This document shows, piece after piece, positions 45,001-48,000 of a DNA stretch of 64,000 bases. The DNA is from Escherichia coli. GTDB lineage: Bacteria > Pseudomonadota > Gammaproteobacteria > Enterobacterales > Enterobacteriaceae. Made by a program: the position numbers. Within the stretch, counting starts at the first letter, position 1. Every line of letters begins with the position of its first letter. The stretch lies in assembly GCF_030013595.1 (NCBI RefSeq), contig NZ_CP122768.1, one strand, 5' to 3'.

Positions 45001-48000
45001 AGAATTTATTTTCTAAGTCCATTAGTTAACCTCTATGAAAAAATTGGTTTCTTGCATCCTGCATAAGCAATAGAAATTGTGGCTATTCATATTTATGTGT
45101 CATTAATGCTATAGGAGTTTACATTCGACATATCTATGGTTGTGTTCACTAATTTATCTTAGGAATTCAGTGATGTAATCTGAAATAGCCTTATTCAATT
45201 TTGATAAAATAGATTGTTCTCTAACACGTTGAAAAATAACAATTTATAGTGTGTTCTTAACTGTTTTAAGATGTTGATTTAAGAAAACATAAGAGAAGCT
45301 GGTCATAGTAGTTAACTGCACTATAACCAGCAATTTTAACCAAAATATTGTAATGCTTAGCCATTATCTTCTGAATTATCAGTTAAGAGTTCAATATATG
45401 CCTGCGCTTTGCTCTTAACACTTTCATCCTCACAATTGTTAATAATATGATAGAAACATTGCATTGCGTTATCGATATTTTTAGCCCCAATTTGACATTG
45501 ACCCATACGATAAATAACTGAATAGTCATCATACGGTGAGTAATTGTAACTTAGTTTGTAAAGGTCATATGCTTGTTGATATTCCTTTTTTGACTGGCAT
45601 ACTGATGCAAAACCTTTTAGATATTCATGATTTTCGAACGCATAAATGCACAGAAATTTATAATAAATTTCTGCGTCCGTTATATTACCTTTTTCATGGT
45701 AGTCGAATGCATATGCATATATTCTATCAAGTATATCAGGAGTCAATCCATGTAGTAATGCCAGATTTTCTCCTTGTGATAATGCGTGTTTTAGTTGACT
45801 TGCCCATTCATCACTGTTATTGAATATTTCAAGTGTATCTGTGCTCATAATATTCCTCTGTGATGTGTTTCGTGATGCTAAATTATTATTAATTGACTCA
45901 TTATTTTTTTGCATTTATCTTTTTTGAATTATGAGTTTTAAGCTTGCATTGCTTATGGGTATATTGGTTCATTATTAGTAAAAATACTGACCACTATAAA
46001 CCAATAATGTCATTAGTTGTTTTGCTAATATTCACCTTATTAGTTATCTTAATTACGACATTTCATAAATGCCTTAATGTGCATGGCCTAGATTCATATT
46101 ATCAATTTCCATTTTTTCGATGAAAATTAAAAAAGGGATTTTTGCGAAGGGTAGTAAGTCGTCTGGTTTTTTTTCTTTATTATGTCTGGTGACGAGGGGG
46201 GATAGAACGTCGGTACATATAGTAGAGAATTTATTCAGGTCTAGATTATTCTCTATTTTGGCCAGTTTTATGAGTTCATTTGTAGCCATACTCATTAAAT
46301 CATCTGTTATCGGAAATTTATATATGCTCATAGCCGATAATATTGCTTGCTGAATTATTTCTTCAGAAATATCCGCTATCTTTATTGACAAATCATGTGT
46401 TAGATATTTTCCTCCAAGAGATTCTTGTTCAATATAATTTAAACCAGACCTCATCGTAATTTTAACTGGATTCACGTATTTCTCTTCATTTTTCTTATTT
46501 TTGTTCTCCTGATCAGGAACTAATGGTTGCAGTGGTAGGCTATTATTAATATTTCGTGGCTTCATTTTACATTTCTCTCATTTGATTAGAGCAAAATCCG
46601 AATTCGCAGCTTCTGATAATGTCAAATATCACCTTTTCTCATGCTTTATTCTATCAAAAATCGCTCATTTTTACTTTTTTTACCATAATGTTACTTAGTG
46701 GCATCGGCAATTTACATAACTTACATGTTGTTTTTTATATCCTGAAAAAACAGATAGATAGTGTGCACACTCGAAATGATATTGGTAACATAAATAGCTT
46801 TATTCGTGACAAACATCTCAAAAGATTTCCTTTATTATTTTCGAAATTCATTTGATCAAGGTTATCACCTTATGGAGACGTTACGTAGAATGACTATATT
46901 TGTTATCGGCACATTAGGGGTATTAAATTTAGTATTGATGGAAGGTGATTATTGAACAGTAACATCGAGTCACGGTCAAAATGTGAGGTATATAATGGAC
47001 ATTGAGTTTTCGCAGATTCATGAAATGGTCTATATGCATGATATTGTAAATTCGGACTCGAAAAAGAAACCAAGGATTCCGTTAAAAAAATTCCTTAATG
47101 CTGAGAAGGTTCTCACGCAAACAACATCATGGGTACTAAATTCAAGATATGTGAATGTTAATTCTGTCAGTAAAGTCAACGTAAAGAGTAAAGTTAAAAA
47201 CAGTTATATCTCACGATCTGTCAATGATGAGTTTAGTTTAACAGATGATGAAATCAATTCTTTTAAAGAAACGTTAGTCCTTTCCTCTATTGATTCTCTA
47301 AGTAAACTGGTTCTTAATAATCCTCTTTCTGTATTGTTTACATCGACTGTACGAAGGAATAATAATAGAGCTAAGATGAATGTTGAGTTCGACTCATGGA
47401 TTTGCACCAGATGTTGTTGATACATGATATTTTACATTGCAAGGTGATATCTAAAATGAAAGATGTTGATCAAAACTTTGATGCTTTATACTGGCATATA
47501 CTACAAGCATATTTAATTTTATTGTTTTATGATTAACGCGGTTCCATCTTTTTGTTATCTATTTAAGTTTACCTTGCACAATGCATTATTGCTCTGTTAC
47601 CAATACTCAAAATAAAAGCATGCTTACCTTGCTTTAGTATATTATAGCTTACACTTTTTTCTGGAAAGACATAAAAATCAGGAATAAGTTCTGCAAGTCT
47701 ATCATCATCGACTTGATCCATGATCTCAAATTTATTAACTTTCTTTGATGTTAAATGGGCTGTGTCATAGTTTTCAATCCATGTGTATTCAATATTTCGC
47801 CGTATTGACTTACTTTCTCTGTTACCTTGTTGCCAGGTTCCGCTCAACGCAACAGTTCCTGTTTTATTTTTTTGGTTATACATAAAGTCGATGGTAAGAT
47901 TTGCTCGCCCCTTGTCATTAAAAATTACCCAATTTGCAGTGCATGTTTCATTATATATCATTTTTTCTGCAGTATAAGAGTAAACAATGAAGAGAATAAA

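Follow-up and report, generated by a model that had tools for sequence, protein, structure and literature searches.

The gene ygeF, which lies upstream of the chaperone gene ygeG in the ETT2 island of Escherichia coli, is a genuine gene that encodes a poorly conserved orphan confined to Escherichia ETT2. As the best explanation of the locus as a whole, to which we give about an even chance, we consider ygeF an orphan accessory gene of ETT2 that is at most loosely coupled to a YgeG working without YgeF. YgeG would probably act independently of YgeF in a SicA/IpgC-like manner, with EivF and/or the translocators EipB and EipC, encoded at the separate eip locus, as its candidate partners. YgeF would be an accessory linked to the secretion apparatus, and most plausibly a minor secreted substrate exported via an N-terminal signal. 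We infer these roles of both proteins from gene structure, selection, orphan status, gene order, decay, substitutions in the chaperone groove and the lack of similarity to translocators, each of which was determined directly. The main effect of the analysis is to remove the idea, raised in an earlier note, that YgeF is the remnant of a translocator, and it indicates that YgeG is not dependent on YgeF. The locus and the assignment of YgeG as a chaperone have already been published; ygeF beside them is uncharacterised, and no functional study of YgeF was found in the literature, also when the locus names ECs3707 and b2850 were used.

Gene layout around ygeF and ygeG

The window, that is, the whole stretch of 64,000 nucleotides that was analysed, covers the E. 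coli ETT2 island (99.8% identity to strain HCP5S3_I2), and the apparatus genes eivF, eivG, eivE, spaM/N, sctQ, prgH and orgB were found in it. On the minus strand, ygeF occupies positions 46074-46565 and encodes a protein of 163 aa (about 18.6 kDa), which in intact alleles is annotated by RefSeq as 'hypothetical protein'. An AT-rich spacer of 225 bp (45849-46073, minus strand) separates it from ygeG (45357-45848, minus strand), which encodes a diverged class II TPR chaperone of the SicA/IpgC type. The open reading frame of ygeG spans positions 45357-45914 on this strand, but the real start is the ATG at 45848: a GAGGA Shine-Dalgarno sequence is located 5 nt upstream of it, and no such sequence precedes the ATG at 45914; the resulting product of 163 aa is also the one annotated by RefSeq. 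The order on the 3' side of ygeG is a terminator-like hairpin (45298-45331, minus strand; 13 pairs and a weak T tail, starting 26 nt past the stop codon), a 334-bp spacer and then ygeH (43646-45022, minus strand), a gene for a HilA-family regulator that scores 1061 bits on the NCBIfam YgeH model. The eivF gene, which encodes an InvF-like activator or homologue, is located at 24871-25620. Thus, the arrangement in the earlier note, with a 163-aa ORF upstream of the chaperone gene on the same strand and a HilA-like regulator gene after it, was recovered in full.

The same note had reported that SipB/C-like genes are missing, which is true for the whole 64-kb window. Using SctE, SctB and SctA together with IcsB, IpgA and IpgB1 (Shigella effectors/chaperone) as tblastn queries from four systems, we detected no translocator genes in the 64 kb at E≤1e-3, while the positive controls were found (SctU matched epaS, and SicA/IpgC matched ygeG). 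No paralogue of YgeF was found in the window, and an Rfam search over positions 43000-48000 gave no credible match. A translocator set, EipBCD, with a SicA-like chaperone of its own, EicA, comes from the eip locus, which accompanies intact ETT2, together with the HilA-like EilA (PMC11068852). Judged from this literature description, EicA and EilA represent the same pairing of a chaperone with a HilA-like regulator as ygeG and ygeH, but the eip locus differs in being located elsewhere on the chromosome, outside the window.

YgeG and its coupling to YgeF

YgeG matches Pfam TPR_3 at 3e-22 and, among PDB entries, IpgC at 4e-32, with PcrH, SycD and AcrH also being matched. Its identity to SicA and IpgC is 36-38%, and its model shows the three-TPR, all-helical build, with at least seven helices and a pLDDT of 74-94 over the TPR core. 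It shares with the SicA-SipB/SipC and IpgC-IpaB/IpaC systems this three-TPR build, the location in an SPI-1-type island and the presence of an InvF homologue (EivF). In those systems, free SicA or IpgC co-activates InvF or MxiE. YgeG differs from SicA and IpgC in that translocator genes do not follow ygeG (in the class II arrangement, sctE and sctB come directly after the chaperone gene), and in that its scores remain below the curated cutoffs, with 123.9 bits against 184 for the SicA model and 79.7 against 104.8 for the LcrH/SycD model TIGR02552; in RefSeq, its name is no more specific than 'tetratricopeptide repeat protein'. A further difference concerns the binding groove. When the positions equivalent to SycD Y40, F44, Y47, F59, L74, G75, A78 and Q81 were compared, Y44, F48, G79 and Q85 were found to be kept in YgeG, and Y63 replaces F. 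All YgeG alleles carry H51, K78 and S82 at the equivalents of SycD Y47, L74 and A78, which amounts to three polar replacements at positions that are Y, M and A in four SicA/IpgC proteins (IpgC and three SicA). The altered groove could reflect a new ligand instead of lost binding. YgeG and EivF have been regarded as the counterparts of IpgC and MxiE, and icaR and icaT were not activated by EivF plus YgeG in place of MxiE plus IpgC (PMC9241512). Deletion of ygeG resulted in lower espE3 transcription/mRNA (PMC10463865).

Among the alternatives to an independently acting YgeG, the one that survives best is that YgeG has YgeF as its cognate cargo, with LPLQPL in the TPR groove until secretion; the freed YgeG could then co-activate EivF in a translocator-free feedback. 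We regard this as a tentative possibility. The two genes are neighbours of the same orientation, and ygeG is followed by a hairpin, so that a joint transcript is possible; the window holds no other candidate cargo. Nevertheless, a chaperone-cargo relation, although possible, drew no support from the computed tests, and the pairing, prompted by adjacency alone, stays a guess. The earlier note had reasoned that class II chaperones are normally encoded beside the translocators they bind. This held for four reference loci (Providencia, Shigella, Pantoea and a Salmonella plasmid), in which the cargo genes lie 3' of sicA/ipgC at a distance of 0-8 bp, with sctE first, but it did not extend to ygeF, which is located upstream of the chaperone gene and across 225 bp. 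The adjacency is therefore of the wrong kind. In K-12, H-NS binding and a site for the RpoD holoenzyme, attributed to ygeG, map to this spacer (PMC3946193), which has also been catalogued as a 'promoter island' (PMC3661553). Since the 225-bp spacer has its own promoter in K-12, ygeF and ygeG would be at most loosely coupled. The K-12 gSELEX promoter hexamers were not present in the spacer of the window when up to two mismatches were allowed, and a sigma-70 scan of positions 44900-47100 gave 14 sites versus 13.4 in shuffled controls, which is no excess. A sequence resembling the MxiE box was not found near ygeF; there was one match elsewhere, with 1.3 expected.

The N-terminus of YgeF speaks in favour of a cargo role. 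Codons 1-40 (46446-46565, minus strand) encode a basic, unstructured region that, from its composition and the AlphaFold models, is a candidate type III secretion signal. As the earlier note had described, it is polar (GRAVY −1.3, pI 9.9; rich in Asn, Lys and Pro), and it showed no secondary structure in both AlphaFold models (pLDDT 25-36). The first acidic residue is D18, residues 1-17 being free of any, and Pro is present at position 3. With a disordered polar N-terminus, no early acidic residue and a gene inside ETT2, YgeF has the general traits of a type III substrate, a permissive description that in itself proves nothing. Codons 10-15 (46521-46538, minus strand), encoding LPLQPL, are the sole invariant N-terminal stretch: the hexapeptide is unchanged between YgeF alleles that are only 49% identical, amid a fast-evolving N-terminus. 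It resembles VPLTPP and VPLRAP (VPLxxP) of SPI-1-type SctE and comes close to the hexapeptide bound by chaperones: its first, third and sixth residues are hydrophobic, as in the consensus (PMC3443056). On the chaperone side, YgeG retains Y44, F48, G79 and Q85 of the groove. However, the strict P/VxLxxP motif, which is present in 4/4 SctE and 2/4 SctB at residues 53-87, is missing from all three YgeF alleles, and the near-match at residues 10-15 lies at a different position. Moreover, 5.4 occurrences of the relaxed pattern are expected by chance, and the YgeG pockets that would take motif positions 1 and 3 have changed. An AlphaFold2 model of the fusion YgeF-(G4S)8-YgeG, built on a 9-row alignment and without interface scores, gave no docking signal. 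YgeG had a pLDDT of 74-94 in this model, and that of YgeF was not raised (24-42, with 25 for the N-terminus, in the fusion versus 31-57 for YgeF alone), a comparison to be read with the shallow alignment and the lack of interface scores in mind.

Patterns of gene loss bear on the coupling as well. In 12 sampled genomes, ygeG was annotated as intact throughout and ygeF was frameshifted in 7, so that the two genes are not kept or lost together, and an intact ygeG is found in genomes with a broken ygeF. We propose that YgeG is kept intact everywhere because it acts without YgeF, with EivF and/or EipB/EipC. In favour of the cargo relation, eivA and the region upstream of ygeF are retained in similar numbers of genomes: a segment of 236 bp at 46627-46862 (strand unassigned), with the 9-bp direct repeats TATCACCTT on either side and missing in K-12-like strains, was deleted in 40 of 60 evenly spaced complete E. 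coli genomes carrying the ygeF region (~67%; scored by one-piece versus two-piece matches), and eivA is present in 1307 genomes versus 3590 with the ygeF region. Every genome sampled that has this deletion also has a ygeF frameshift. Hence the loss of ygeF and that of the export apparatus seem to affect similar numbers of genomes, although these are total counts that are confounded by shared ancestry.

To our knowledge, the only well-known case of a substrate gene followed by its chaperone gene is YscX-YscY. In this pair of the Yersinia Ysc system, the gene for a small secreted protein is located directly 5' of the gene for its small TPR-type chaperone. This is the same gene order as that of ygeF and ygeG, but YgeG groups with SicA/IpgC and not with YscY, YgeF has no Pfam family, and the spacer measures 225 bp. 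For the logic of the feedback, the counterpart is ExsE-ExsC of Pseudomonas aeruginosa, in which a small secreted protein titrates a chaperone and its secretion feeds back on transcription; ExsC is a class I chaperone and not a TPR protein, and there is no homology. In its most specific form, the feedback would consist of ETT2-secreted YgeF filling the altered YgeG groove via LPLQPL, with its export freeing YgeG to co-activate EivF, and this we consider unlikely. If true, YgeF-YgeG would be a secretion-sensing feedback switch without translocators, in a system that is present in most E. coli but, as far as we know, lacks a firmly established secreted substrate. If YgeF is secreted or bound by YgeG, it would be the first island-encoded ETT2 substrate and would give a handle on the regulation of ETT2 by YgeG, EivF and YgeH.

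Features, constraint and decay of YgeF

The YgeF product is predicted to be soluble, with a disordered basic N-terminus of about 40 residues, a helical core at residues 41-132 and, at the C-terminus, a hydrophobic helix that was lost more than once. Its maximal hydropathy is 1.05 (Kyte-Doolittle mean over 19 residues), and by this measure there is no transmembrane or hydrophobic membrane-spanning segment. AlphaFold2 modelling of YgeF alone gave an overall pLDDT of 43.5, a value that would not support a meaningful fold search. We considered YgeF as a translocator and rejected this, since it has no Pfam or NCBIfam match, no hydrophobic segment and no strict P/VxLxxP; unlike SipB/SipC and IpaB/IpaC, it carries no translocator mark at all. 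Matches to a PDB entry were likewise not obtained.

YgeF may instead stay in the cytoplasm, not secreted and unrelated to YgeG, as a regulatory or accessory protein of ETT2, a reading that we judge to be rather improbable. The helical core is the most constrained part of the protein (dN/dS 0.36 over codons 41-133), GadX peaks in K-12 are located at yqeK, ygeF and ygeH, pointing to a regulated block among the regulators yqeH, yqeI, ygeH and ygeK (PMC4918353), and the secretome of E. coli O2 was found to be without any ETT2 effector (PMC6030553). However, YgeF has no DNA-binding or other known domain, and a disordered, signal-like N-terminus is of no obvious use to a cytoplasmic regulator. In the O2 study, the supplements of which do not contain 'ygeF', not a single ETT2 component was detected, and the system may simply not have been switched on (PMC6030553).

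The decay of ygeF raises the question of whether it has any function. An A8-CC tract at codons 131-134 (46165-46174, minus strand) is a frameshift hotspot, at which deletions of 1, 2 and 5 nt lead to products of 145, 148 and 132 aa; such deletions were seen in the divergent L004 allele as well as in K-12-like ones. Truncation of the gene three times independently at this tract, frameshifts in more than half of the 12 genomes, the upstream deletion in about two thirds of the genomes counted, and a dN/dS about twice as high as that of the neighbouring genes (0.1-0.25) would all fit a functionless ygeF that is being lost and whose ORF is still intact here by chance. Against this, the dN/dS of ygeF is 0.43 (0.43-0.49), significantly below 1 (Fisher p=1.5e-4) over a deep divergence (dS=0.84). 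Lineages that include O157 and window-like ones retain an unbroken ORF, none of the 7 frameshifted alleles has a second lesion in codons 1-132, and the 236-bp upstream segment is kept even with a divergent ygeF allele. An ORF of 163 codons at 32% G+C is expected only 0.02 times in the six frames of 64 kb, and hence the ygeF ORF itself is not a chance occurrence. We consider a functionless ygeF to be decidedly improbable, and an accessory gene of ETT2 remains our preferred reading.

The orphan status of YgeF became apparent in database searches. Among 1.84 billion representatives, the phmmer matches were limited to fragments from E. coli and a single allele with 50% identity, the contig of which keeps the order yqeI-yqeJ-yqeK-ygeF-ygeG. 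When the divergent allele P0132 was used as the query, only P0132 itself was returned, and this allele was not present in complete E. coli genomes, where the best match was 80.9%. Scans of a species-representative genome collection with a YgeF alignment and with YgeG detected no relatives, which we attribute to the E. coli representative likely being without ETT2. That ygeF is what remains of the 5' end of a larger, decayed translocator or effector gene, as could be suspected from an island without translocators and from a YgeF C-terminus that differs between alleles, is extremely improbable, as YgeF and its flanking DNA, including the 225 bp past its stop codon, are unlike SctE, SctB, SctA, IcsB, IpgA, IpgB1 and the other type III proteins compared (a tip protein and neighbouring effectors included; E≥0.2 against eight translocators by blastp and phmmer in an 18-protein set, and none by library-wide phmmer), nothing longer is similar among the 1.84 billion proteins, alleles that are 90% identical in protein share the 163-aa length and the stop codon, and the gene is under purifying selection.

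In one strain, IS903B is inserted inside the ygeF-ygeG spacer, and both genes are still annotated as intact. The ygeG allele of this strain is the one among the 12 that encodes 159 aa, being shortened at both ends; close to its 3' end it carries a premature stop.

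Organization of the ygeF-ygeG locus

The window covers the ETT2 island of E. coli, a locus that is already known, together with flanking DNA. The 2-kb stretch around ygeF and ygeG is 99.8% identical to that of strain HCP5S3_I2 and is carried by 3596 of the 5426 complete E. coli genomes, each time on the chromosome. All on the minus strand, ygeG (45357-45848) is preceded by ygeF (46074-46565; 163 aa) and followed by ygeH (43646-45022), a gene of the HilA family (1061 bits), as the earlier note had described. The G+C content over ygeF and ygeG is about 32%. We placed the start of ygeG at the ATG at 45848, which has a GAGGA ribosome-binding site and is also the RefSeq start; on this basis a 185-aa ORF was rejected as too long to be ygeG. 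The apparatus genes (eivF, InvF-like; eivG, secretin; eivE, gatekeeper; spaM/N-like; sctQ; eprH; orgB) occupy 24.8-42.6 kb of the plus strand. An IS2 copy (23234-24507; TnpB model, 728 bits) is located just 5' of eivF at the island edge; an extra IS2 within ygeH of the closest genome, HCP5S3_I2, is absent from the window. Between the hilA-like gene and an iagB-like transglycosylase gene, likewise on the minus strand, ygeI (43261-43479) encodes a further uncharacterised small ETT2 protein, an orphan of 72 aa whose N-terminus is polar; its dN/dS (0.4-1.0) is the highest of the block.

YgeG is a diverged SicA/IpgC-type chaperone. Its previous assignment as a TPR protein of this type was borne out by matches to Pfam TPR_3 (3e-22) and to IpgC structures (4e-32), and it shares 36-38% identity with SicA/IpgC of Providencia, Shigella and Salmonella and 34% with a Pantoea protein. 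The reported lack of SipB/C-like genes also held: tblastn with SctE, SctB and SctA of four systems, run together with the Shigella effector and chaperone queries IcsB, IpgA and IpgB1, found no translocator in the 64 kb, while the positive controls matched epaS and ygeG. Published work regards YgeG as the chaperone of ETT2 and the counterpart of IpgC, and EivF plus YgeG did not activate icaR or icaT (PMC9241512). Deletion of ygeG lowered espE3 transcription (PMC10463865). A separate eip locus, which accompanies intact ETT2, encodes the translocators EipB, EipC and EipD together with EicA, a chaperone of their own, and EilA, which is HilA-like (PMC11068852). No ETT2 substrate whatsoever was detected in the secretome of an O2 strain whose ETT2 is intact (PMC6030553).

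ygeF and its product

ygeF is a real gene. The chance expectation of a 163-codon ORF at 32% G+C is 0.02 in the window, and dN/dS is 0.43-0.49 in comparisons with the O157 allele (90% protein identity) and with P0132, an allele of 49% protein identity from two read-archive assemblies in which the order yqeI-yqeJ-yqeK-ygeF-ygeG is the same as here. Over the deep comparison, non-synonymous change is significantly slower than synonymous change (p = 1.5e-4), and the constraint is strongest in the helical core (codons 41-133; dN/dS 0.36). The neighbouring genes (dN/dS 0.1-0.25) evolve at about half the rate of ygeF.

YgeF is a fast-evolving orphan that is specific to ETT2. It has no match in Pfam, NCBIfam or the PDB, phmmer against 1.84 billion representative proteins returned only E. 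coli fragments and P0132, and the literature searched contained no study of YgeF. We found no similarity to IpaB, IpaC, IpaD, their SPI-1-type counterparts, IcsB, IpgA or IpgB1, no hydrophobic segment, and no paralogue within the window. The first 40 residues are basic, unstructured and enriched in Asn, Lys and Pro, in line with the polar N-terminus noted before, and AlphaFold2 predicts helices with low confidence (pLDDT 43.5). The idea that YgeF is the truncated remnant of a larger gene, such as a translocator, finds no support, since its stop codon is common to alleles that are 90% identical in protein and neither the protein nor the DNA 3' of the stop resembles the type III proteins compared.

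One phmmer match, the predicted protein P0122 (162 aa), joins the YqeK N-terminus to YgeF residues 3-96 and the antisense of the ygeH 3' end. It probably stems from a misassembly, or from an ETT2 isoform that has undergone rearrangement or deletion. The contig with the divergent ygeF allele (SRR36547128_5762, 1-4304) is a mosaic relative to the window, with DNA identities of 93% over yqeI-yqeJ, 80% over yqeK-ygeF and 85% over ygeG. Recombination likely underlies this mosaic; the allele is absent from complete E. coli genomes (best match 80.9%).

Evidence bearing on a proposed YgeF-YgeG pair

The earlier note had proposed YgeF as the cognate cargo of YgeG. Five computational tests each spoke against this pairing or gave it no support, and we regard such a chaperone-cargo pair as unlikely; a broader role of YgeF as a type III substrate is somewhat more likely. 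Class II chaperones hold a hexapeptide P/VxLxxP in three hydrophobic pockets (PMC3443056). The strict motif was not found in any YgeF allele, and is present at residues 53-87 in 4/4 SctE and 2/4 SctB proteins. YgeF residues 10-15 (LPLQPL), which are unchanged even in the allele of 49% identity, do resemble VPLTPP and VPLRAP of SPI-1-type SctE, but they lie unusually near the N-terminus, and 5.4 chance occurrences of the relaxed pattern are expected. YgeG keeps the SycD-type pocket residues Y44, F48, G79 and Q85 (mapped from SycD). At three further groove positions, SycD, IpgC and three SicA proteins carry Y, L/M and A, but YgeG has H51, K78 and S82, without variation among the YgeG alleles seen. 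This makes the pockets for motif positions 1 and 3 more polar, which, judged from these residues, could mean either lost binding or a changed specificity. In a fusion model, YgeF-(G4S)8-YgeG, pLDDT was 74-94 for YgeG, 24-42 for YgeF and 25 for the YgeF N-terminus; YgeF was modelled no better than alone, a weak negative given the shallow alignment and a model without interface scores.

Gene order also differs from that of known pairs. At the four reference loci, sctE, sctB and sctA come after the chaperone gene at a distance of 0-8 bp, and sctU lies 5' of it, but in Shigella this place is taken by ipgB1, the product of which is served by another chaperone. ygeF lies upstream of ygeG, at a distance of 225 bp. 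In K-12, H-NS and RpoD holoenzyme both bind this spacer, where a promoter has been assigned to ygeG (PMC3946193), and it is counted among the promoter islands (PMC3661553). As a hairpin is located 3' of ygeG, read-through from ygeF is possible. In E. coli strain 100181 the spacer contains IS903B (1073-1996 of that locus), which would physically uncouple any shared transcript; both genes are still annotated as intact. The ygeG allele of this strain encodes 159 aa and ends at a premature stop close to the 3' end of the gene.

Decay and retention of ygeF and ygeG

Among 12 genomes picked across the ranking, ygeG was annotated as intact in all (once as the shortened 159-aa allele) and ygeF was frameshifted in seven. 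The frameshifts map to an A8-CC tract (46165-46174; codons 131-134), where loss of 1 nt and 2 nt shortens the product to 145 and 148 aa. In the divergent allele, 5 nt are missing from this tract, and no frameshifted allele has a further lesion in codons 1-132. These three deletions, in different lineages, each cost YgeF only its hydrophobic C-terminal helix, a pattern that could be due to selection acting repeatedly against the C-terminus or to a mutational hotspot.

K-12-like strains furthermore have a 236-bp deletion (46627-46862). It arose between 9-bp direct repeats (TATCACCTT) that start 61 bp 5' of the ygeF start (interval 46627-46871). This deletion removes most of the divergent ygeF-yqeK control region; K-12 GadX peaks have been reported at yqeK and ygeF (PMC4918353). 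It was present in 40 of 60 evenly spaced genomes, or about two-thirds of E. coli with the locus, and ygeF was frameshifted in 6/6 inspected genomes that carry it.

Scaling 19/60 to 3590 genomes gives about 1140 in which the region upstream of ygeF is retained, and the export-gate gene eivA is found in 1307 genomes, near-complete in 978. These totals, compared as overall counts and confounded by ancestry, are close, as expected if YgeF were useful only with a working apparatus, be it as a substrate or as an apparatus accessory. YgeG probably has a conserved role independent of YgeF, and YgeG and YgeH may have regulatory roles that outlive the loss of the apparatus.
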